From positions 32,001 to 96,000 of the IMG/VR virus record IMGVR_UViG_3300035180_001847: a stretch of 64,000 bases of DNA; one strand, 5' to 3'. This document shows, piece by piece, positions 9,738 to 62,882 of the stretch (within the stretch, counting starts at the first letter, position 1; each line of letters begins with the position of its first letter). The notes under the pieces are model-generated. The model made no database searches. It had not been told where the DNA came from and saw only the letters and a list, made by a program, of their open reading frames with translations. The stretch comes from a virus. The position numbers were made by a program, and so were the translations under genes.

Positions 9738-9870
9738 ACCCAATAACGTATGCTCCCGACTAGCGGGAGTCTGGTTGCCATAAATAGGTTTTATCTATTC
9801 TTTGAGTTTAATTTCCTTTCGGGCATTTTCTCAGCCCCGTTCCACAAGCGGCTGACGCAAACCGCTAAGT
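9738..9870 (+). mobile_element. attC-like recombination site
   Basis: ACCCAATAACGTATGCTCCCGAC...AAGCGGCTGACGCAAACCGCTAAGT; termini match the RYYYAAC/GTTRRRY pattern with mismatches. Confidence 0.7.
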
Positions 9871-9890: not shown

Positions 9891-10442
9891 ATGGCAAGGA
9901 AAGAGTTTGTCGCTGGCAAAGCGGCTGGTAGGCAGGAAGGTTATACTTCAACACACTTCACGCCCGAAACGGCTGTAATTGATTTACTTCAATTCATCCC
10001 GTTTGAAAGTGGAGATATTGCACTTGATCCTTCTGCTGGCGTAAATAAAGTTTGGTTCAATAATTTTCCATGCAATAAAGATTACTGTGAAATTGATGAA
10101 GGTTTAGATTTCTTTGAGTATCCAAAACAAGTTGATTGGATCATAGGCAATCCGCCTTTCACTGATTTTATAAAGTTTCTTATGCACAGCCCCAGCATTG
10201 CAAGAAAAGGGTTTGCTTATCTTATCGGGCATAGTCGTCTCAATCAGGTTACACCGAAGCGATTGAGTATCTTGGAAGAAAAAGGTTTCTATTTATCAGG
10301 CATCCAAATCTGTACATTCAAAGCATGGTTTGGCAGGTATTACTTCCTGATTTTCACTCGCTCCAAGAATGAAGGTATCGGCTATTCACGAAAGAATTAT
10401 AGCCATGAAGTCTCTACGCCGCAGAACAATGTGTGCTGTTAA
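9891..10442 (+). CDS. small DNA adenine methyltransferase, gene cassette
   Basis: HFTPE, LDPSAG SAM motif, IIGNPPF catalytic motif; AAGGAG RBS. Confidence 0.85.
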   Translation: MARKEFVAGKAAGRQEGYTSTHFTPETAVIDLLQFIPFESGDIALDPSAGVNKVWFNNFPCNKDYCEIDEGLDFFEYPKQVDWIIGNPPFTDFIKFLMHSPSIARKGFAYLIGHSRLNQVTPKRLSILEEKGFYLSGIQICTFKAWFGRYYFLIFTRSKNEGIGYSRKNYSHEVSTPQNNVCC

Positions 10443-10506
10443 AATTTGAATAATTTTACGGTTTTATCTCGTCCCGCTCATATGCAGATAGCGCAAACCG
10501 TTGGCC
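10421..10506 (+). mobile_element. attC-like site (internally shortened)
   Basis: GCAGAACAATGTGTGC...TTATCTCGTCCCGCTCA...GCAGATAGCGCAAACCGTTGGCC. Confidence 0.7.
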
Positions 10507-17714: not shown

Positions 17715-17744
17715 TTGACAAGATAAGGGGTATTGTGCTATAAT
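17715..17744 (+). promoter_or_regulatory. sigma70-type promoter
   Basis: TTGACA-N18-TATAAT with extended TG. Confidence 0.75.
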
Positions 17745-17753
17745 GCTTAGAAT

Positions 17754-17901
17754 ATTGGTAGTGAGAGAAAGTTTCATCTTAGCTTACGAATAATTGCGCG
17801 TATAGCTGTATGATGGATGCCCACTTATCAGGGTATGACACCTCCTAACGCATGGGTTGAGGCCATATAGATGGTTCTTATAAAACAAGATAAGTACCAA
17901 T
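17754..17901 (+). ncRNA. candidate structured ncRNA
   Basis: Closed by ATTGGTA/TACCAAT, several internal hairpins, starts about 10 nt after a -10 box, no ORF. Confidence 0.45.
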
Positions 17902-18031: not shown

Positions 18032-18141
18032 CTAAATACAAAACATTTTTTAAATAAAACCGATTTTTAATGACGGAAATCATTTCATTCAAACGATTTG
18101 TCCATAAATAAAAAATTGAAAAATGAATAAGGAAAATATAG

Positions 18142-37875: not shown

Positions 37876-38880
37876 ATGGCGAAAATTAAATCGATTGAAA
37901 TAACAAATGAACAATGGCAATCCGTTAATCCACGCAACCGAAAAATAACGGATGAATTTCTTCGAGAAAGTATGCAACTTTCAGACCAAACCTTGAAGCA
38001 ATATTCTTCCGCTCTTCAAATTTATTTTTATTGGGTGAAAACGGAATGTGAAGATAAGGATTTCGATAAACTTAAAAGTAAAGATTTTTTGATGTTTCAA
38101 AATTATCTAATAAGAAGGGGGCTGTCATCTTCTGCTATTAGACTTAAACGAGCGGCTGTTTCATCTTTGAATCAATATGTTGAGACATATTTTGAAGATT
38201 TGAATTTTAAAAATTATATAACTAAAAAAATTCCTGCGCCAGCAATGGTGTTTGTAAATGAAAAGAAGCCCCCCACTCTTGAAGAATATGAAATGATTTG
38301 TGCCAAGCTGGAAGAAATGCAGGAATGGCAAAAATTGGCTTATCTACGCTTTACATTTACAACTGGATGCCGAAGGAGCGAATCGGTTCAGTTATTAAAA
38401 AGTATTGTTGATTCTGAAAAGAAAATTGTTGAAGTAAAAACAAAAGATGAGAACGGTAATCCCATAATTAAACAAGCGTCTTTTTATGTTACCAATCCCA
38501 TACGATGTAAGGGCAGGGGAAAAGCTGGAAAGATTCGCACATTTCAGATGGATGAGGCGGCCATGCTTGCAATTAAAAAATGGTTGTCTGTTCGCGGAAA
38601 TGATGATTGTGAATATGTTTTTGTTTCTAATATAAAAGGAAAAATAAAACAATTAAATCCAGCGACTTTAAATAAATGGTCGAAAGGATTGTTTACAGAG
38701 ATTTTAGGAAGAAGATTTCACCCCCACATTTTAAGAGAAGCAAGGGCAACAAGTCTTGTCGTTGAAGGTGGGAAAGATATAAAAGTTGTTCAAAAATTAT
38801 TAGGCCACAATAGTCCTCAAACTTCCGAAATTTATGTAATTAGAAATGATGAAGATATGAGCGATGAGGCATTTACATAA
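37876..38880 (+). CDS. tyrosine recombinase (XerC-like, YomM-like position)
   Basis: TGCRRSE, HPHILR, LLGH and Y catalytic residues. Confidence 0.9.
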   Translation: MAKIKSIEITNEQWQSVNPRNRKITDEFLRESMQLSDQTLKQYSSALQIYFYWVKTECEDKDFDKLKSKDFLMFQNYLIRRGLSSSAIRLKRAAVSSLNQYVETYFEDLNFKNYITKKIPAPAMVFVNEKKPPTLEEYEMICAKLEEMQEWQKLAYLRFTFTTGCRRSESVQLLKSIVDSEKKIVEVKTKDENGNPIIKQASFYVTNPIRCKGRGKAGKIRTFQMDEAAMLAIKKWLSVRGNDDCEYVFVSNIKGKIKQLNPATLNKWSKGLFTEILGRRFHPHILREARATSLVVEGGKDIKVVQKLLGHNSPQTSEIYVIRNDEDMSDEAFT

Positions 38881-53983: not shown

Positions 53984-54215
53984 TTTATTCTCCTCATTGA
54001 TGAAATTATAGTTTTATTCTTTGTACCAAATTGTTCCAATTAACTTTTTTGACTTCCGTGTATTTCTTTCAAAGCCTTGAACGGTAATCGATTAGCATCC
54101 ATATTTTCACAAACAATTTCCCGTTCTTTTTTAGATTTACGGTGTCTTGCCAGAGTATCAAGGTTTATATTTTCACTTTTATTATACTATATTTATAATA
54201 AAAAGTCAAGAATTG

Positions 54216-54248
54216 AAAAAGTCACCTTATTAATAAAGGCGACTTTTT
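54216..54248 (-). terminator. intrinsic terminator
   Basis: AAAAAGTCACCTT...AAGGCGACTTTTT. Confidence 0.6.
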
Positions 54249-54420
54249 ATTAATGTTATTCTTTTTTGTCTGTACGCTGCCTAGATGGAATAACTAGAAC
54301 CGCGTTGCCACCCAAACATTCGAAAAAAATTCAAGCAACAAAAAAATCAAAATACAATCAAATATTGACATTTTATTTTACTTCTATCGAACCAAAATTA
54401 TCTCAACTTATAGTTTAATT

Positions 54421-55035
54421 TTACTTGAATGGCTCAAGGATTGTTTCACCTTGAGAAATAACATACGGAATTTCTCTTGCTCCCCACTTCAACACAATAT
54501 ATGAAATAAAATCTTGAATAGTGGGGAATAAATCGACACTAACTTTATATGCCGTAATTAATCTTGCCACAGTGTTCCCCCCAATTTTTTCAAAAAACGT
54601 GGTTATAATTGCATAAAATGATCCATCGTCATCTTTACAAAGCCATAAATTTGTACTAACTGGAGTATCATCCGCATTCTTAAAACCATAAGTGCGATAA
54701 GATTTCCATGTTCCATGATTGTCCAAACATCGAAAGGCAGCATTGGCTTCCGTAGAATGTCTAAGCCAAGCATGTCCATTAACAACTTGAATAATGCGAA
54801 GTTCTTGTGATGTTAAATTTGATGCAGTTTCATCAAGAACTGGCGACAAAGTTAAAGTCCCGCCATATTGCAAAACAAATTTTCCCAAATCTTCTGATTG
54901 TTGAATAGGAGACAATACGGTAAAATTTACACCAGAAAAAAACAAAACAGAAATTATAATTGAAAACAATAGAATGGCAATCATTGCAAATTTAATTACA
55001 CCCATACCGCTTGTTGGAATATTCATTGTGGTCAT
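54421..55035 (-). CDS. membrane-anchored hypothetical protein
   Basis: N-terminal TM helix; GAGGAG RBS. Confidence 0.7.
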   Translation of the reverse strand: MTTMNIPTSGMGVIKFAMIAILLFSIIISVLFFSGVNFTVLSPIQQSEDLGKFVLQYGGTLTLSPVLDETASNLTSQELRIIQVVNGHAWLRHSTEANAAFRCLDNHGTWKSYRTYGFKNADDTPVSTNLWLCKDDDGSFYAIITTFFEKIGGNTVARLITAYKVSVDLFPTIQDFISYIVLKWGAREIPYVISQGETILEPFK

Positions 55036-55075
55036 AAAATATAATCTCCTCTTTATTATAATTTTATTTTTTGTT

Positions 55076-55291
55076 TTATAGAGTTCTGAAAATCAATTGG
55101 CGAAGGTTTTCATTATTTGCATCGGGCGAGTTTATAATCATTTGAAATGATAGCTTTTCCCCAATTGTGCAATCAAAATCTGGTTCGTGAATTCGCACAT
55201 ATTCCATAACATGAAGCGGAATGTTCAAGCGTAAAATCCAGCATCCAATCATAATTGCATACATAAATTTGTTGAGTGTGAGTGATGACAT
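55076..55291 (-). CDS. hypothetical protein
   Basis: 71 aa, AAGGAG RBS, promoter upstream. Confidence 0.6.
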   Translation of the reverse strand: MSSLTLNKFMYAIMIGCWILRLNIPLHVMEYVRIHEPDFDCTIGEKLSFQMIINSPDANNENLRQLIFRTL

Positions 55292-55320
55292 TTTATCTCC
55301 TTTTTTATTTGATGCTTATC

Positions 55321-55349
55321 ATTATACAGGATGATGATTGATTTGTCAA
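55321..55349 (-). promoter_or_regulatory. sigma70-type promoter
   Basis: Minus strand TTGACA-N17-TATAAT. Confidence 0.75.
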
Positions 55350-55587
55350 GATGTAAAATTACATTTTTATCAATAATTTTTACTATCATGTCACAATATT
55401 CGTCTTCTAATTGAGTGCATGACAAAACACATGACAAAAAATTAAAAAGACATGCACACGTCAAATAATAACGTGCGCATGCACTCAAATAAGTAAGAAA
55501 TGTCATCACAAGAACAATGAAATCGAGGATGATTAACCAGAACACAAAATACAATCAACAACTACACCAACGTCGAAACCTAAACTC

Positions 55588-55626
55588 GCCCAACCGATAG
55601 CCAGTTGGCCGCACGCTTTGTTAGTC
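55588..55626 (-). mobile_element. minimal attC-like site
   Basis: Minus strand GACTAACAAAGCGTGCGGCCAACTGGCTATCGGTTGGGC. Confidence 0.7.
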
Positions 55627-55815
55627 ACCGCTCATGCTGTCAAACACATTCAATAGTGTTTCATCAAACGTGCCAACACCTCTCATTTCTTCGAGGCGTA
55701 CGGCGCATTGAAAGAAATCATTTTCTTTGAGACAATCTTTGGCAGATGTCAACAATGTTTCGATAACCTTGATGCGTCGCTGCAACTCTTGTTTGCAAAC
55801 ATCTTCTGTTTTCAT
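55621..55815 (-). CDS. hypothetical protein, gene cassette
   Basis: 64 aa, AAGGAG RBS; stop codon TAA lies within the GACTAAC inverse core. Confidence 0.7.
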   Translation of the reverse strand: MKTEDVCKQELQRRIKVIETLLTSAKDCLKENDFFQCAVRLEEMRGVGTFDETLLNVFDSMSGD

Positions 55816-55839
55816 AATTCTCCTTTTAGCAAGATGGGG

Positions 55840-55964
55840 GACTAACGGCTTGCGTCAGTTGCGGGGCGATTTGCAAAGCCCGCAAGTATCAAAATTTACA
55901 CTGCAAAAGGAATTACATTTTTTGCAGCACCAGTAATCCCCATCAACTGCGCGCCTTGTTAAGT
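55840..55964 (-). mobile_element. attC-like site overlapped by coding sequence
   Basis: Minus strand ACTTAACAAGGCGCGCAGTTGATGGGG...GCCCCGCAACTGACGCAAGCCGTTAGTC. Confidence 0.8.
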
Positions 55965-56103
55965 GCGCCAAAGTTTCGCCAAGTTCCTTATAAAGCAACC
56001 CTGCTTCTTCTCGCGTAAGTATATAATCTTTCATACCCTCAAGGGGACGAAGGCAAACAAGATCGGAAACACCTTTATACGTTGAAATCATTTTGTTTTG
56101 CAT
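55855..56103 (-). CDS. hypothetical cassette protein with C-terminal zinc finger
   Basis: 82 aa, AGGAG RBS; WCCKKC...CGLCKSPR. Confidence 0.7.
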   Translation of the reverse strand: MQNKMISTYKGVSDLVCLRPLEGMKDYILTREEAGLLYKELGETLAHLTRRAVDGDYWCCKKCNSFCSVNFDTCGLCKSPRN

Positions 56104-56109
56104 AGTAGC

Positions 56110-56204
56110 TCCTAACTATGTTTTGAGCGGTGAAATCACCGCCTAAATACCCAAATTAATCTTAATTATCTTCATTAGCCAATCGTATGAACGGCTTGCT
56201 CTGG
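56110..56204 (-). mobile_element. degenerate attC-like site
   Basis: Ends ATAGTTAGGA on the minus strand; the left end CCAGAGCAAGCCGTTCA is eroded. Confidence 0.35.
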
Positions 56205-56387
56205 ATAGAACTTGACTTCACCACCCCAAGCATACCAAAGATCAGTTACGTGTTCAACGATTTCAGACGCTTTATTCTCAAGTTCATCAGGAATAACGAG
56301 AGTTGGATTATCGCCGTCCCACCTGATTATTGCGCCTTCATACTCTTTTGCAAGAGCCTTTTCAAGAAGTGCCTTCCAGTTTTTCAT
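56175..56387 (-). CDS. hypothetical protein, gene cassette
   Basis: 70 aa, AAGGAG RBS, directly after an attC GTTGGGC core. Confidence 0.7.
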   Translation of the reverse strand: MKNWKALLEKALAKEYEGAIIRWDGDNPTLVIPDELENKASEIVEHVTDLWYAWGGEVKFYPEQAVHTIG

Positions 56388-56407
56388 GAGTCTCCTTTTC
56401 CTAGATT

Positions 56408-56539
56408 GCCCAACAGACTTGCGTTAATGGTTTTGTCGCTCATAGTTCGCGCAAATTAAATGAATGCATTGTTCGCAGGGTTCGCCATAGACATATTGTT
56501 TGGTATCGGTGGCGAAATCCCCTGCGTGCTTTGTTAAGT
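56408..56539 (-). mobile_element. attC-like site overlapped by coding sequence
   Basis: Minus strand ACTTAACAAAGCACGCAGG...TAACGCAAGTCTGTTGGGC. Confidence 0.7.
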
Positions 56540-56672
56540 GTACTTTATGTTGATTATGAGCGTCTCTGACACCGAACGCCCAGCATCGAAAGCCACAAAT
56601 TGAGCAGGTGTAATATTTTGTCTTTTTACCGCGATGGGTAATTTCAAATTTAGCACGATGATGTTTTTTCAT
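56424..56672 (-). CDS. hypothetical Cys/His-rich cassette protein
   Basis: 82 aa; CSICG...H..H and CEQC motifs. Confidence 0.6.
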   Translation of the reverse strand: MKKHHRAKFEITHRGKKTKYYTCSICGFRCWAFGVRDAHNQHKVHLTKHAGDFATDTKQYVYGEPCEQCIHLICANYERQNH

Positions 56673-56795
56673 ATTTATTCACTTCTGTTCCTTTTGGTTT
56701 CAAACTAAATCACCCGCAATTTTCATTACACCCAATCTTATTTTTTGGCAAACGTTTTCTTTTTCAAGTGGCAAAAATTGAAATTGAAAGCGACA

Positions 56796-56996
56796 TCAAA
56801 CATCTTTTTCCGGAACTGATTCTACATCGCCATACTTCTCTAGAAGTGGCTCAACCTCATCATAAAGTGAATAACCCTTTTTGAGTAATTCAACAGCATT
56901 ATGTAATTGGCCTTTTGCAATCATTGCTCCAAGTTCCCCATTGTGTTGAATATTGTAGTCTGCGTTTTCCAACGCTTCCAAAATTAATGCCGCCAT
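56796..56996 (-). CDS. hypothetical protein
   Basis: 66 aa, AAGGAG RBS. Confidence 0.6.
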   Translation of the reverse strand: MAALILEALENADYNIQHNGELGAMIAKGQLHNAVELLKKGYSLYDEVEPLLEKYGDVESVPEKDV

Positions 56997-57062
56997 TATC
57001 TCTCCTTTATATATTAAAAATTATTGATATTGTTAATTTCACGAAACATTTACGTTCAACTA

Positions 57063-57200
57063 TCATGTAGTGCCCAATGCGATAGTGAAAAAAAATGCAG
57101 ACAAAAATAACCATGCAGCAGATTCATATTCATCATAATACAACGCAATACCAGCCATTATTAATTGAATTACAACAAGAATCAAGAGGATAATCTTCAT
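57063..57200 (-). CDS. small membrane protein
   Basis: Start MKIILL after AAGGTG; TTGACA-N17-TATAAT at 57220-57248. Confidence 0.5.
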   Translation of the reverse strand: MKIILLILVVIQLIMAGIALYYDEYESAAWLFLSAFFFTIALGTT

Positions 57201-57426
57201 TTTTTCACCTTTCTTTTTTATTATATAGCAAACGATCCATTTTGTCAATAGGCAATTTATGAAATTGAATTATTTGTTCTATTTTTCAAATCCTTTTAAG
57301 GTATCTTACAATATCTCACCATTTATTTATCATACTTGTTGTCATCACGTTATCCATTCAAGTATTTCAAATAATTGTTTATAAGCATCTTCATTTATGT
57401 GTGCATAATAAACATGATTTTTAAAT

Positions 57427-59685
57427 TTAATTTTTGAAACCTTTCAACCATGTATTTCTAATTGTGGCATCTTCCCTCAAACATTTATCAAATGCGTATG
57501 GTTCAGCCAGAATCAAACATCTTTGTTTAGAGCGAGTCATTGCCGTATAAATTAACTGGGAATTCAATAACATAAAATGCGAGTTATCAAGAACGATAAT
57601 CACATCTCTATATTCTGAACCTTGAGATTTGTGGACTGATATTGCATAGGCAAGTTGTATTTCATTAATGTTTTCATGGTTATATTCAATATATTTATCT
57701 GAAAGATTATAATAAACTTTTACTCCATTCCCATCAACAAAAGTAATCACTCCAGTTTCTCCATTGAACACGTTGAGGTCATAATCATTCTTGGTGTGAA
57801 TAACTTTATCATTTAACCAAAATTCGTTTTTCCCATGAACAAATTTAACTGAACTATTATGAAAATTTATTTCTTTTTGAATCGCTAAATTGAAATTTCT
57901 TGTTGAATTTAACGTATCACTTTTTCTTGGAACTAACAATACCACATTATCTAAACCGAAATCAGACACGGATTTTAGATATGTCTTTATAGCAATATTG
58001 AATAAATCTTCTCTTTCATTTTTAAAAATATAATAAAGGTCTTTATTATTTCCATGAACGATTTTTGGTTCTTTCTTTTCAATGGGGTTTATTCCATTTC
58101 TAATTTTATTGGAATCTAGAATGATGCCAGAATTTTTTGCTTGTCTTTGAATTTCAGTTAATTCAAATCTCGTAAATGGCATATCTATTTCATATAGATC
58201 GGAAAAAACATTTCCTTCACCAATGGGAGGAAGCTGACCCCTATCACCCATCAAGATTACCTTTGTTTTAGTGGTATCAATTGCCTCAAATAATTTTTTA
58301 AATAAAAATGAATTTATCATTGATGACTCATCAACGAGAACTATGGAAAAATCAAGTTTATTTCTTTCTCCATATATAAATCCAGATTTTCCCTGCGCTC
58401 CAAGTAATCTATGAATTGTCATTGCATCAAATCCAGTTACGGATTGAATCCTCATGGCCGCAACGGCGGATAAAGAACAAACACCAATTTTATATCCCAT
58501 ATTTCTATATATAGAAAGAACTCCTCTGGCAATGCTTGTTTTTCCAGTTCCACTTAATCCAGTAATACTGGAAAAATTATTCATGGTTATTTTCTCAATC
58601 ACATTTTTTTGCTCATCGGTATACGAAAAACCAAGCTCCTTCTCCGCCATTTTAATGCCCGTATTTATCGCATCATCACTTACTTCGAGGGGAATTGAAT
58701 TATGAATAGATAAAATGGCGTCGTAAATATATTTTTCATAGTCATAAAATTTTTTAAGAGAAATTTTATCGTTTTCTATATGTAGAAATTTCGGATTATT
58801 TTTTTCTCCATCCATAAAATTTTCTAAAAGTTCATCTGTTTCAGGAATATTGTTATTCACTTCTTTTTTTAAATCATAAATAGTAACCCAAGTATCACCA
58901 TCTTGAGAACGTTGTTCCAAATAATACTTGATGAAAGAAACCAGTCTTGTTTCAGAATTTCTTAAATTGGGATTTAGTTGATTGGCAATCTTGTCCGCTG
59001 TTTTAAATGTTATTCCATCTGCTTCGGTAATAATATACGGATTTCTTAAAATCTTTTCTCGAAGAATTTTGGGATTAGTTTCATAGTCTAATAGTTTTTT
59101 GATTTTGGAAAAAGAAATTCCAAGAGGTGTAAGCAAAATTAATATATCAGATAAAGCAAAATTACTTACAATCTTTTCTTTAATTTTATCCCATGTAGTC
59201 TGTCCAACCCCCTTAATTAAATCTAAATCAACATTATCTTTACCAGAAATAATGTCATCGACAATATTTGGATAGTTTTCCAGAATGGATTGAGCCTGAT
59301 TATTTGTGACTAAAGAACGCAAATATAATTCCTGTTCATCCCTTGTCTTTGGCTGAACCAATTCAACCGATTTAATTGTATATTGATAACCCCTTATTTT
59401 TTTTACATATTCAGGGATGCCAACAATATTATAAATATCTCCTATCGATGGTTCTGGCATCTTTCCGGCAATTGAAACGATATAAGATGATGACTCATTA
59501 TTTGTTTCAATGTCGTAATCCAACTGCAATTTGGAATGCGGTATTTCATTTTTAGTTGAAACAACCAGAGCGCCCCAAGAACTATTTGGGTCATAATATC
59601 TAATGGACTTGATTATTGCAGTAAATGTCAATGGTTGTTTTTCTTTATTTGTATCGATGTTTTCCATTATTGGTTTCCTTTTCAT
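57427..59685 (-). CDS. recD2: RecD2-like SF1B helicase
   Basis: GLSGTGKT, TIHRLL, VDESSM, GDRGQLPPIG, AYAISVHKSQGSE; N-terminal HhH. Confidence 0.93.
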   Translation of the reverse strand: MKRKPIMENIDTNKEKQPLTFTAIIKSIRYYDPNSSWGALVVSTKNEIPHSKLQLDYDIETNNESSSYIVSIAGKMPEPSIGDIYNIVGIPEYVKKIRGYQYTIKSVELVQPKTRDEQELYLRSLVTNNQAQSILENYPNIVDDIISGKDNVDLDLIKGVGQTTWDKIKEKIVSNFALSDILILLTPLGISFSKIKKLLDYETNPKILREKILRNPYIITEADGITFKTADKIANQLNPNLRNSETRLVSFIKYYLEQRSQDGDTWVTIYDLKKEVNNNIPETDELLENFMDGEKNNPKFLHIENDKISLKKFYDYEKYIYDAILSIHNSIPLEVSDDAINTGIKMAEKELGFSYTDEQKNVIEKITMNNFSSITGLSGTGKTSIARGVLSIYRNMGYKIGVCSLSAVAAMRIQSVTGFDAMTIHRLLGAQGKSGFIYGERNKLDFSIVLVDESSMINSFLFKKLFEAIDTTKTKVILMGDRGQLPPIGEGNVFSDLYEIDMPFTRFELTEIQRQAKNSGIILDSNKIRNGINPIEKKEPKIVHGNNKDLYYIFKNEREDLFNIAIKTYLKSVSDFGLDNVVLLVPRKSDTLNSTRNFNLAIQKEINFHNSSVKFVHGKNEFWLNDKVIHTKNDYDLNVFNGETGVITFVDGNGVKVYYNLSDKYIEYNHENINEIQLAYAISVHKSQGSEYRDVIIVLDNSHFMLLNSQLIYTAMTRSKQRCLILAEPYAFDKCLREDATIRNTWLKGFKN

Positions 59686-59693
59686 GTTGCATT

Positions 59694-62600
59694 TTATTCT
59701 AAAAATTTATCGTTTTGTTTCATTACATAATATGTTTCAAGCCATAAATCGAATTTATCTGGTACATCTTCCCATTTTCCGTTGATTGCTTTTCTTTTTA
59801 TGTTTTTCTTTTTCAATGTTTTACATAATAGAACATCGCCAATTTTAAACGGATGTTCAGAAAAGGTTTTCTTATCTATTTTCAATGTTTTTCGCATACC
59901 ATTTTTTAATGTGTGAACAAGAGCCTTCGGAGAATATTCTAAATTCAAATCCATGATGAATGCATACATCTTATTGACATCAAATTTTGTAAAAATATCG
60001 CCAGTAATATTGAATTCAGATGTAATTTTTTCTAAAATTGAAAAATTTTCATTTTGCATCCATTGTTCAATTTCTCTTAATTCTTTCAATCTGCTTTCTT
60101 TGGTTTCATTCTTCAATGAACTAGAATATCTAAATTTTCCAGATTTAAATTCATCAAAAATTTTTAGCAATTTTTTTTCGCCACCAAAATCTTCAAAATA
60201 TCCTATTTTAATAAGTTGTTCAAATTTAGATGATAAAAATTTATTTTCTTCGGCGCAAACCAATAAATCAACAAAGGTATTTCCTTTAAATATTTGATAA
60301 AGATTAAACATATCATCTGAAATTTTTGAACCGAAACCCTTTAAACTTTTAATAGATTGTGTGATTTCATTCCTTTCAGTATTTCCAATAATCTTTCTGT
60401 TATCTTGTCCAAATTTCAGCTTTGGAAACTTTATATGAAAAAATGATTCAGCTTCTTTTTTTGCTAGATTTAGTCTGTCTTTATCGCCATCTTCTTCCAT
60501 CATTTGAAGAAAAACTTCATAAAATTCAATGGGATAGTGTGATTTCAACCATGCACCATACAGACTATCACCAGCAACGGAATAAGCATGACTGCTGTTG
60601 AATGAATAGCGGCTAGAATCTTCAATGATTTTCCAAGTCATATTTGCAATTTCATTTGACTTATTTTCATCTAGTTTTTCTATTTCCATCAATCTTTTCA
60701 TCATTCCGTTGATGAATTTTTCTTTTTTAGACAAAACCTTCTCGTATCTTTTTTTGGCAATATTTTTGATAATATCATAGGTTTCTTTGATTGGAATTCC
60801 CGCCCATGCCATAACATTCATTGCATTTTCTTGATAAAGCATATAGCTAAAAGGGAATTCATCTGTTTGAATCACTTTGTCTAATGATTTAACCCCATAT
60901 TCAAATGGAAGTCTTGCTTCAAATTGAGAATAATTTGACTTGAATCCTGGTCTAATTGCGGCTATAAAAGCCGATAAATCAGAAATATTACGAGGGGAAT
61001 ATTTAGCAACCCGCTCGATTGTTCCAGATTTTTCTACTTGGTTAATTCCAATTCCCAATCCATTTTTATATATATCCCAAGTTTTATCATCAGCTTTTCT
61101 TAGCAATTCAGACAATGAAAATGGCTCAATTCCAATTCTATCGAAAACACGATAAATTAAATCCACGACACTTACTTTTAATAAATCATTTTTGAACATC
61201 TTGTATTTTTCTGCGAATTCCCCATCGCAATTCACACAAATATGTTCAGAATCTCCACTTTTGATTTTAATTAATCCAAATTCTTCTCTTATATCTCCCT
61301 GTCCATATAATAAATATGCACATGGATGAGGAGAAATGGTATTTACAATGTTCAAATACTTTCGACTTTCATTATAAATCGGAAGATATTCTTCATCAAT
61401 ATAATCATCGATTTGAGGAGCATTGTCCAAATCAACATCATCTGGATTTTCCTCAATGTAATGCCGCATATCCTTTTCAAAATTTTTTAAAATATCTGAA
61501 ATAAAATTGGATGTATCAAAATCAATCCCGGCGGCTCTTGCATAAAGTTTCCATGCGCCAGAATTTTTTACTTTTCCAAATGCAATCATGGGATAAGAAT
61601 GCTGTTCCCCGATTATTTCTTTTTGAGCCTTTGCAAATATTGATGGTGTTCCCAAATTTAAATCAACATCTGGCAAAGAACCAGTTTCCAAAATTCTTTC
61701 CGCTGTAATAAATCTTTCTGGAAACAGTTTGACTGTTGCGGCAATTCTATCAATCGTTGTAATTCCAAGTAATTTTGTAATATAAAAACTTGGCGCAGAA
61801 CCACGCCCCGTTAAAGTAATGGAGCCACCCAATTCTTTTCCTCTGGCAACTATTTTTTCATCAAGAAGAAAATAATCGGACATTTTCGATGTAATAACAA
61901 CATCTATTTCTTTTTTTATTTCATTTTCATATAATGGCCATTTATCAAACGGCACATTGTTTTTTTCTTCATCCCATCTTTCCCAAACAAGTTTCTTGAA
62001 AATTGAATCCTTTTCATCTTGGGATTTATCGGGATAAAGTGTTGGCATTTTAATTAATTTGTCATTAAAAATAATTGAATCATAAACATCCACATTTTCA
62101 AAAATCATTGTGTTTTGGAGAGAAATTTCAATTTGTTCATCTGAAAGAATGTTTTGATCTTGAAATCTTTTAAAAGCCAAATCATAAGATGGAAAATCCA
62201 TGAACCAACCATCTTCATCTGGATAAGAAATTCCACGAGAAATAAGAAAGTTGTCTCTCTCAATCTTTTGAGATTCATGAATCATGTGAGTATCCATACC
62301 AGCTATGATTTGAATACCATACCTTTCGGATAATCTCAAAACTTCCTTATTTATTTCTTTTTGTTTTTCAACATTATGATTTTGAACTTCAAGAAAAAAA
62401 TTATTTTTAAAATTATTATGGAATTGCAAAATCAAATTTTCATAATCATCATATTTCCACACTCCGCCCAAACAAGCAGATGTAACCCAAACATCGTTGG
62501 AGGGGAGTGATAGAATCAATTCTAAATCTGTTCGAGCCTTATAATAAAATCCAGTTACATTTGCTTCGCTGAGAATTCTATTTATGGCTTTACGTCCATT

Positions 62601-62882
62601 TTCATTCTTGGCAAGAAGAACAAGATGCGCGTTTGTCGCATCTTTTTCAAAACGATTTTTTACAAAATAGGTTTCAACTCCAAGCAACGGTTTCAAATTA
62701 TTTTTTTTAGCAAGTTCAATGATTTCAATGAATCTTCCAGTCGTACCATGTTCAACACCCGATAGGACTGGCATTCCTAATTCAATAGTCCTATTGGCTC
62801 TATCAGAATTGGAAATAACAACATCTGGGGTAACAATGTTACTGTAAAAGGAATGCGAATGATAATTTATATAATTGTTCAA
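59694..62882 (-). CDS. dnaE: DNA polymerase III alpha subunit
   Basis: PHP NYHSHS, GRGSA, FPERF, LPDVDLN, HPCA, LYQE, FNSSHA motifs; no intein seen. Confidence 0.95.
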   Translation of the reverse strand: MNNYINYHSHSFYSNIVTPDVVISNSDRANRTIELGMPVLSGVEHGTTGRFIEIIELAKKNNLKPLLGVETYFVKNRFEKDATNAHLVLLAKNENGRKAINRILSEANVTGFYYKARTDLELILSLPSNDVWVTSACLGGVWKYDDYENLILQFHNNFKNNFFLEVQNHNVEKQKEINKEVLRLSERYGIQIIAGMDTHMIHESQKIERDNFLISRGISYPDEDGWFMDFPSYDLAFKRFQDQNILSDEQIEISLQNTMIFENVDVYDSIIFNDKLIKMPTLYPDKSQDEKDSIFKKLVWERWDEEKNNVPFDKWPLYENEIKKEIDVVITSKMSDYFLLDEKIVARGKELGGSITLTGRGSAPSFYITKLLGITTIDRIAATVKLFPERFITAERILETGSLPDVDLNLGTPSIFAKAQKEIIGEQHSYPMIAFGKVKNSGAWKLYARAAGIDFDTSNFISDILKNFEKDMRHYIEENPDDVDLDNAPQIDDYIDEEYLPIYNESRKYLNIVNTISPHPCAYLLYGQGDIREEFGLIKIKSGDSEHICVNCDGEFAEKYKMFKNDLLKVSVVDLIYRVFDRIGIEPFSLSELLRKADDKTWDIYKNGLGIGINQVEKSGTIERVAKYSPRNISDLSAFIAAIRPGFKSNYSQFEARLPFEYGVKSLDKVIQTDEFPFSYMLYQENAMNVMAWAGIPIKETYDIIKNIAKKRYEKVLSKKEKFINGMMKRLMEIEKLDENKSNEIANMTWKIIEDSSRYSFNSSHAYSVAGDSLYGAWLKSHYPIEFYEVFLQMMEEDGDKDRLNLAKKEAESFFHIKFPKLKFGQDNRKIIGNTERNEITQSIKSLKGFGSKISDDMFNLYQIFKGNTFVDLLVCAEENKFLSSKFEQLIKIGYFEDFGGEKKLLKIFDEFKSGKFRYSSSLKNETKESRLKELREIEQWMQNENFSILEKITSEFNITGDIFTKFDVNKMYAFIMDLNLEYSPKALVHTLKNGMRKTLKIDKKTFSEHPFKIGDVLLCKTLKKKNIKRKAINGKWEDVPDKFDLWLETYYVMKQNDKFLE

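Follow-up and report, generated by a model that had tools for sequence, protein, structure and literature searches.

A phage-borne integron attC site that is probably translated through as the zinc-finger tail of a small cassette gene

Integron attC sites are taught as non-coding recombination signals, defined by their structure and lying after cassette genes. The locus described here raises the question of whether such a site can at the same time be the coding sequence of a protein domain. It lies in a phage (G000) represented by a 105,455-bp virus record in IMG/VR that has direct terminal repeats, of which bases 32001-96000 were analysed; this stretch of 64,000 nucleotides is called the window below. 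The core genome of the phage has a GC content of 30-32%. Amid small early genes on the minus strand, one open reading frame runs into an imperfect palindrome with the appearance of an attC, and ends only on its far side. We argue, with a probability of about 0.8, that this is an attC within a phage CALIN that is translated through as a finger tail, with two overlapping constraints acting on one DNA.

The gene and the elements of the palindrome are listed with their surroundings in Table 1. A ribosome binding site, AGGAG at 56109-56113, lies 5 nt ahead of the ATG. A reading made earlier from the sequence alone had held that the frame continues through the attC and stops in its right arm, and this is directly visible in the sequence. 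The TGA stop (55855-55857) lies within that arm, at the family-conserved T-A-A of L', and the last 36 residues encoded are HLTRRAVDGDYWCCKKCNSFCSVNFDTCGLCKSPRN. The two arms, CTTAACAAGGCGCGCAGTTG at 55944-55963 (minus strand) and CAACTGACGCAAGCCGTTAG at 55842-55861, are complementary as had been proposed. The bottom strand, which is the plus strand of the window, folds with 20 arm-to-arm pairs, compared with a median of 21.5 in non-coding bacterial sites of the same family. The opposite assignment, with the minus strand as bottom strand, was rejected; the extra bases lie on the 5' arm of the top strand, as they do in canonical attC sites.

Table 1. Features of the attC/finger locus and of related elements; positions are those of the window except where the genome of G000 is named.
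Feature	Position	Strand	Remarks
Cassette gene, 82 aa	55855..56103	-	Body residues 1-46; attC-encoded tail residues 47-82
attC, Anaerolineales-type family (assigned by sequence comparison), 124-nt imperfect palindrome	55840..55963	-	Top strand is the window minus strand; recombinogenic bottom strand would be plus
R'' box ACTTAAC	55958..55964	-	Perfect RYYYAAC; in the gene frame part of Leu48-Thr49
Unpaired central spacer and L'' arm (AAGGC GCGCGCAGTTG AT)	55942..55957	-	Linker residues RRAVD
Variable terminal structure (loop)	55873..55932	-	W58-C77, predicted C4 zinc finger W-x-C-x2-C-x10-C-x2-C
Stem extension CCCC and L' arm CAACTGACGC	55852..55866	-	P80-R81-N82 and TGA stop
R' box GTTAGTC	55840..55846	-	One deviation from GTTRRRY (third R); family consensus GTTGGGC
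Next cassette gene, 64 aa	55621..55815	-	RBS and ATG begin 25-40 nt past R'
Short attC remnant after the 64-aa gene	55588-55625	-	Partial match to the covariance model, 16.3 bits, E 0.043
Second attC, same family	56408..56538	-	Covariance model 20.2 bits, E 0.0057
82-aa gene	56424..56672	-	Reads through attC 56408..56538, ends at TAA of L'
RecD2-like helicase	57427-59685	-	Replication module adjoining the attC/finger locus
DnaE-like polymerase	59694-62882	-	Replication module adjoining the attC/finger locus
attC, same family	9739-9870	+	Covariance model 44 bits
attC, same family	10422-10506	+	Covariance model 19.6 bits
Tyrosine recombinase	37876-38880	+	PF00589 (83.6 and 76.6 bits for the G000 pair)
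Tyrosine recombinase	G000 genome 7474-8310	-	PF00589 (83.6 and 76.6 bits for the G000 pair)

The identification of the palindrome as an attC comes from its relatives. The motif of the 3' arm, CGCTAACGCAARCCGTTGG, is present in 83 bacterial contig stretches, overwhelmingly from metagenome-assembled genomes (MAGs) of Anaerolineales/Chloroflexota, and two of five motif-bearing genomes encode an integron integrase, IntI (TIGR02249 scores of 447 and 438 bits, with the cut-off at 265). In the Anaerolineales genome with the 438-bit integrase (G004), 20 co-oriented sites of the family occupy 20 kb upstream of intI and are divergent from it, which is the classical layout of a sedentary chromosomal integron. 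Fifty-seven bacterial sites were aligned (alignment A3), and we built our own covariance model (CM R1) from these sites only. AAC and GTT are invariant in the alignment, the spacer is unpaired and the variable loop is long, and the L-box has extra bases on the 5' arm of the top strand (a 2x1 asymmetry with a bulged A). Compensatory changes are seen in 10 of the 15 consensus stem pairs, and the pairs of the L-box covary. The model matches 55840-55963 on the minus strand over its full length with 45.3 bits (E 1.2e-8 in the 64-kb window). Folded in isolation, the 136-nt stretch exceeds shuffled sequences in stability by a small margin only (z = -1.6 to -1.8), and so it is the family that supports an attC, not the free energy of a single copy. 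Different genes translate the arms in all three frames (as LTKRAxD, QQSVQxT and PNKACSG), from which it follows that the arms are conserved at the level of DNA and not of protein. The score, the R'' and R' boxes, the covarying stem and the family arrays beside IntI all indicate, by comparison of sequences, that the palindrome is a genuine integron attC, as had been claimed, and that it belongs to the family of the sedentary chromosomal integrons of Anaerolineales/Chloroflexota.

The site has company within the phage. G000 has roughly 19 attC sites in total, of which about 14 fall between 1 and 32 kb of the genome and so outside the window. The arms themselves are found about 15 more times, mostly at 1-32 kb and on the minus strand, and at every one of these other copies a small gene stands before and a ribosome binding site with ATG after. 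The product of the second gene that reads through an attC in the window (56424..56672, minus strand) has a body with a C2H2-like motif, YTCSICGF...HNQHKVH, and an attC-encoded tail with C-x2-C-x4-C. There is also, at 18061-18130 of the G000 genome, a 37-nt, 97%-identical copy of the ribosome binding site and first nine codons of the finger gene (compared with window 56074-56150). It adjoins another attC-bounded cassette, has the same small upstream palindrome GCGGTGAAATCACCGC with mismatches, and looks like a remnant of cassette rearrangement.

No IntI was found in G000, which has two generic tyrosine recombinases only, scoring at most 35 bits with TIGR02249 (cut-off 265); both were rejected as integron integrases. 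Because IntI is absent from the phage, the cluster is a CALIN. A second phage with related sites (G001) was found to have neither IntI nor any tyrosine recombinase. A megablast search of 54000-58000 against GenBank phages gave no match, and MAG contigs of low GC content in which the arm motif is present (Flavobacteria and others), compared with the phage by blastn and tblastx in a search for its host, proved unrelated to it.

What does the site encode? A protein search over 1.8 billion representatives (word-based plus full HMMER) gave nine further proteins of 72-80 aa that have unrelated N-terminal bodies and the same tail; the tails of P0003-P0009 and P0012 sit on mutually unrelated bodies. 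In the resulting alignment of 10 sequences (A2) the tryptophan and the four ligand cysteines are invariant, together with D, G, P and R, and the positions of the window copy's two non-ligand cysteines are variable, occupied by C/V/A/M and by C/V. The C-terminus is thus conserved among the homologs, a point on which the sequence-only reading depended. A profile of the tail compared with all PDB sequences matched only fingers of the NZF/RanBP2 type (TAB2 best, with E 0.004; also TAB3, Npl4, HOIP and RYBP). AlphaFold2 (AF2) gives pLDDT values of about 90 for residues 61-80, and the Foldseek list is headed almost wholly by RanBP2-type fingers (ZRANB2, HOIP, Trabid). Several of the top matches have an rmsd of 0.5-0.6 Å over about 26 columns; the E-values of 0.3-2 are non-significant because the domain is tiny (26 residues).

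Neither the 82-aa product nor its five small neighbours have a match in Pfam or PHROGs. For PF00641, the gathering threshold is not reached by the window ORF, and the scores of P0012 (21.1 bits), the L078 tail (14.5) and the second tail of L014 (11.1) are all below the cut-off of 27. The window copy has the spacing of the finger and its four cysteines, but the asparagine conserved in RanBP2 fingers is replaced by cysteine (cysteine or valine in this finger type); the exact pattern W-x-C-x(2,4)-C-x3-N-x6-C-x2-C occurs in the relatives P0012, L078, L150 and L175.

Selection on the protein can be examined in the codons of the loop, where pN is 0.10 and pS 0.35, a ratio of about 0.3 (Fisher p = 3e-4). 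The test is a small one, with three independent pairs, because DNA was sampled for only three copies of the exact finger type, two of them near-identical; such copies are few, as a DNA search with the tail found L014 among metagenome loci, G001 among viral ones, and no others. Constraint on the protein and covariation in the stem are both observed. The proposal that the loop encodes a RanBP2-like C4 finger is upheld by the invariant residues, the PDB profile matches, the AF2 fold and the substitution ratio. The tail may well bind zinc, and it would supply a folded module for binding RNA, DNA or protein.

The same arrangement recurs elsewhere. The covariance model finds 236 sites in 79 viral loci, and an arm-based census gave 207 distinct sites (loci L016-L220). 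The upstream ORF reads the whole site as far as the L' stop in 57 of 111 phage sites compared with 9 of 94 bacterial sites (p = 5e-11), and of 83 frames that enter a site, 57 share the phase of the L' stop where one third would be expected (p = 8e-11). A CxxC...CxxC motif is present in the frame of the gene in 17 of 76 read-through tails; it is absent from the 152 remaining frames of those sites and turns up in one of 210 frames of non-coding sites. The fingers of the census are diverse, including the exact RanBP2 pattern (L150, L175, L078) and C-x2-C-x14-C-x2-C ribbons (L118, L206). Sites that encode fingers retain paired arms, with slightly fewer pairs than the non-coding ones (median 16 vs 21.5, p = 0.03), the 20 of the window copy lying between. 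Among phage-borne sites of the Anaerolineales-type attC family this design is common, and the window site is an example of it.

The contrast between hosts is sharp: in bacteria the copies are for the most part one uniform non-coding repeat of 124 nt, and in phages their loops are diverse and usually coding. In one contig binned to a bacterial MAG (L027:938-1070, minus strand) an attC loop encodes two CxxCxGxG repeats (CPVCAGKG...CIPCNGTG), the pattern of a DnaJ-type zinc centre; its score with PF00684 is 18.3 bits, below threshold.

Comparison of copies shows where the module begins. Between G000 and the unrelated, higher-GC phage G001 the bodies are 27-47% identical, and from exactly R'' through the site identity rises to 83-100%. 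The same finger-attC is found behind at least nine unrelated bodies, and the body of the finger gene is found elsewhere with another attC tail: in P0002 it is 87% identical and is followed by a Cys-rich tail of a different kind. By these sequence comparisons the finger travels with the attC and not with the gene body. At the other end the common module reaches about 25 nt past R' into the next ribosome binding site. This stretch lies beyond the canonical IntI crossover, and therefore the common module comprises the attC and the ribosome binding site of the next gene. In the window the stretch after R' (CCCCCATCTTGC.AAAAGGAGAAT followed by ATG) is at 55815-55840; it is common to unrelated phages and to cassettes, with counterparts in G001 (L011, about 655-680) and at 17730-17765 of the G000 genome.

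The codon that ends the gene varies within L', being TAA in the family, TGA in the window copy and TAG in L014. By reading of the alignment, the three stops appear to match structurally tolerated variants of that arm. The contig that provides the TAG variant (L014:1-2256, from a metagenome) is an array of five cassettes whose genes almost all continue into their attC sites; it has two different RanBP2-like finger tails and an internal TTGACA-N17-TATAAT promoter at about 693-725.

These observations can be assembled into a mechanism. The frame of a small cassette gene passes the 5' arm, with R'', spacer and L'' read as a linker, LTRRAVDGD. The variable loop then encodes a predicted four-cysteine finger of the RanBP2/NZF type, and the gene ends at a stop codon that the conserved L' arm itself supplies (C-T[A/G]A-CGCAA, TGA in the window copy). 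As folded single-stranded DNA, the arms would have to pair for IntI-type recombination; at the level of mRNA, loop and arms would have to encode a domain that folds. The finger is under constraint as protein and the arms have remained complementary, so that one stretch of DNA bears two sorts of information that overlap. Of the dual coding that had been claimed, the family attC, the fixed frame and the constrained finger stand, and recombination in the present is only putative.

That last point opens the way to a different account, in which the site was active when the cassette entered but no longer recombines. The attC would then be a fossil and the DNA single-use today, its arms persisting only through their coding role or a hairpin in the mRNA, or because the event was recent. 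Several observations fit such a history. The phage has no IntI, R' is GTTAGTC and not GTTRRRY, and the 45 bits of the window copy are far lower than the 82-118 bits scored by bacterial sites adjacent to IntI. In the L014 copy, which encodes the same finger, complementarity of the L box is poor, and the neighbouring sites at 55588-55625 and about 56110-56200 look eroded. However, the window copy has CAGTTG/CAACTG where the family has CAGCGG/CCGCT(G). Both arms carry matched changes with respect to the family, and so pairing has been kept after divergence; it is kept also in GGGG/CCCC and in the spacer AAGGC/AAGCC, and 20 arm pairs still form on the bottom strand. The copy in G001, 90% identical and bounded exactly at R'' behind another gene in an unrelated phage, argues that the module has been mobile recently. 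Moreover, phage attC sites lacking an IntI of the phage's own have been recombined by bacterial IntI1 (PMC9892861). We therefore regard a dead site as rather unlikely, and prefer the reading of an attC under both constraints, on which a host IntI could still act at 55840-55963.

It might instead be translation itself that is selected, the ribosome proceeding to the L' stop, melting the mRNA hairpin and coupling the next, promoterless cassette, with the peptide as a by-product. Short ORFs in attC sites and in attI (ORF-11) relieve stem-loop barriers (PMC8876359), the L' stop of the window copy is 39 nt before the next ATG, and about three quarters of the read-through tails are not finger-like, many of them low-complexity in appearance. 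Yet this leaves unexplained the invariant tryptophan and four cysteines, the pN/pS of the loop codons, the confident predicted fold and the confinement of CxxC...CxxC to the frame of the gene. We consider it improbable as a complete explanation. Coupling and a functional tail are compatible, and coupling competes with the preferred reading only if nothing else is gained from the translation; within the preferred reading of a translated attC with a finger tail, translation through the hairpin probably also aids expression of the next cassette.

A more sceptical view is that the ORF is merely open across a GC-richer palindrome, with cysteines supplied by a TGCA-rich hairpin. A canonical 124-nt bacterial site is indeed open in all three top-strand frames up to L' (one sequence was read), and palindromic TGCA/TTTGCAAA motifs in the loop provide TGC codons. 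Chance or faulty annotation of this kind would not confine the cysteine motif to the frame of the gene, keep ligand cysteines invariant while non-ligand cysteines vary, preserve the spacing W-x-C-x2-C-x3-N-x6-C-x2-C on unrelated DNA (L078, L150, L175, P0012), or bring the entering frame into phase with the stop at a rate far above one third. It is largely refuted, and we give it very little credence.

Last, and least probable of all, the palindrome could be an intergenic repeat peculiar to phages (a terminator, or a module like the PeSLs of T4) that merely resembles an attC, for which one might cite the missing IntI, the 25 nt of common module past R' that the IntI crossover model does not predict, and the great abundance of the family in viral contigs, but which is largely refuted by the 20-site array beside the 438-bit IntI and by the AAC/GTT boxes, unpaired spacer, bulged bases on the top-strand 5' arm, variable loop and strong covariation. 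The PeSL modules of T4-type phages combine a promoter with terminator-like stem-loops and shuffle small early genes by homologous recombination; they are not known to be substrates of IntI or to be translated. They share with the sites described here the repeated hairpin boundaries between small early phage genes and the modular shuffling of genes.

Accepting that the attC is translated as a finger tail, there remains the direction in which the arrangement arose. The sequence-only reading took the site to be exapted and a route to new domains. That a loop encodes a finger stands; the direction does not follow, as the finger fits the pre-existing RanBP2/NZF family in its tryptophan, four cysteines and PR after the last cysteine, with the conserved asparagine in relatives. 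From these sequence traits it seems at least as likely that a ready-made finger was captured between attC arms as that one was born from the loop. We may also suggest, tentatively and as something we think somewhat doubtful, that the loop acts as a portable C-terminal mini-exon, recombination between arms (by IntI or by homology) adding finger tails to upstream small genes. The recurrence of zinc fingers, the smallest autonomous folds, as cargo would follow from the loop's capacity of about 25 aa. If the mini-exon were real, integron-type sites of phages would reassort the domains of proteins in addition to entire genes.

The closest known system is that described by Qi et al. 2023 (PMC9892861), who found CALINs in virulent phages and recombination of phage attC sites by bacterial IntI1. 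The sites described here resemble those in forming integrase-less clusters among small co-oriented genes, with R''/L''/L'/R' hairpins. In the accessible portions of that paper attC sites are treated as lying downstream of cassette genes, and no translated or domain-encoding sites are reported; its 17 CALINs are also far fewer than the occurrences in metagenomic viruses of the present family, which is of Anaerolineales type.

Compatibility of attC rules with protein coding was established by Nivina et al. 2020 (PMC7439510), who placed synthetic attC sites in coding sequence. Their sites were designed, and encode linkers or segments of lacZ. The overlap described here is natural, the loop has the predicted fold of an autonomous finger and the L' arm serves as stop. 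ORF-11, ORF-17 and ORF-18, and short ORFs borne on attC sites, couple translation (reviewed in PMC8876359). In common with these there is translation across a recombination site, a stop in the core-site region and a plausible aid to the next cassette. But those ORFs are separate leader-like peptides of 11-18 aa that have no fold, whereas here the cassette gene itself crosses the whole site and gains a conserved domain.

With the RanBP2/NZF fingers themselves (PF00641; TAB2, Npl4, HOIP, ZRANB2, Nup153) the tail shares the cysteine spacing, the PR after the last cysteine and a predicted two-hairpin fold; the asparagine is conserved in P0012, L078, L150 and L175 and is cysteine in the window copy, which has no Pfam match. 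The known ligands of these fingers, ubiquitin, Ran and GGU RNA, are eukaryotic. Unlike known members, the finger here is the C-terminal tail of phage proteins of 72-82 aa and is encoded inside a recombination site. Literature searches (attC with zinc; attC with Anaerolineae; overlap of ORF or stop codon) found no natural attC that encodes a domain, and to our knowledge the hiding of an attC inside coding sequence has been shown by synthetic work only.

The sites would thus constitute a natural family in which the arms are read as linker and stop codon and the loop as a predicted folded finger, about half of the phage sites being so read. One consequence is practical, in that gene calling which trims cassette ORFs at the attC will get them systematically wrong in such arrays. 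The family also provides a tractable natural case of overlapping codes for a DNA hairpin and a protein, in which the trade-offs can be measured. For the phages, it suggests shuffling at the level of domains among tiny early proteins, which are likeliest to be factors of host takeover or anti-defence.
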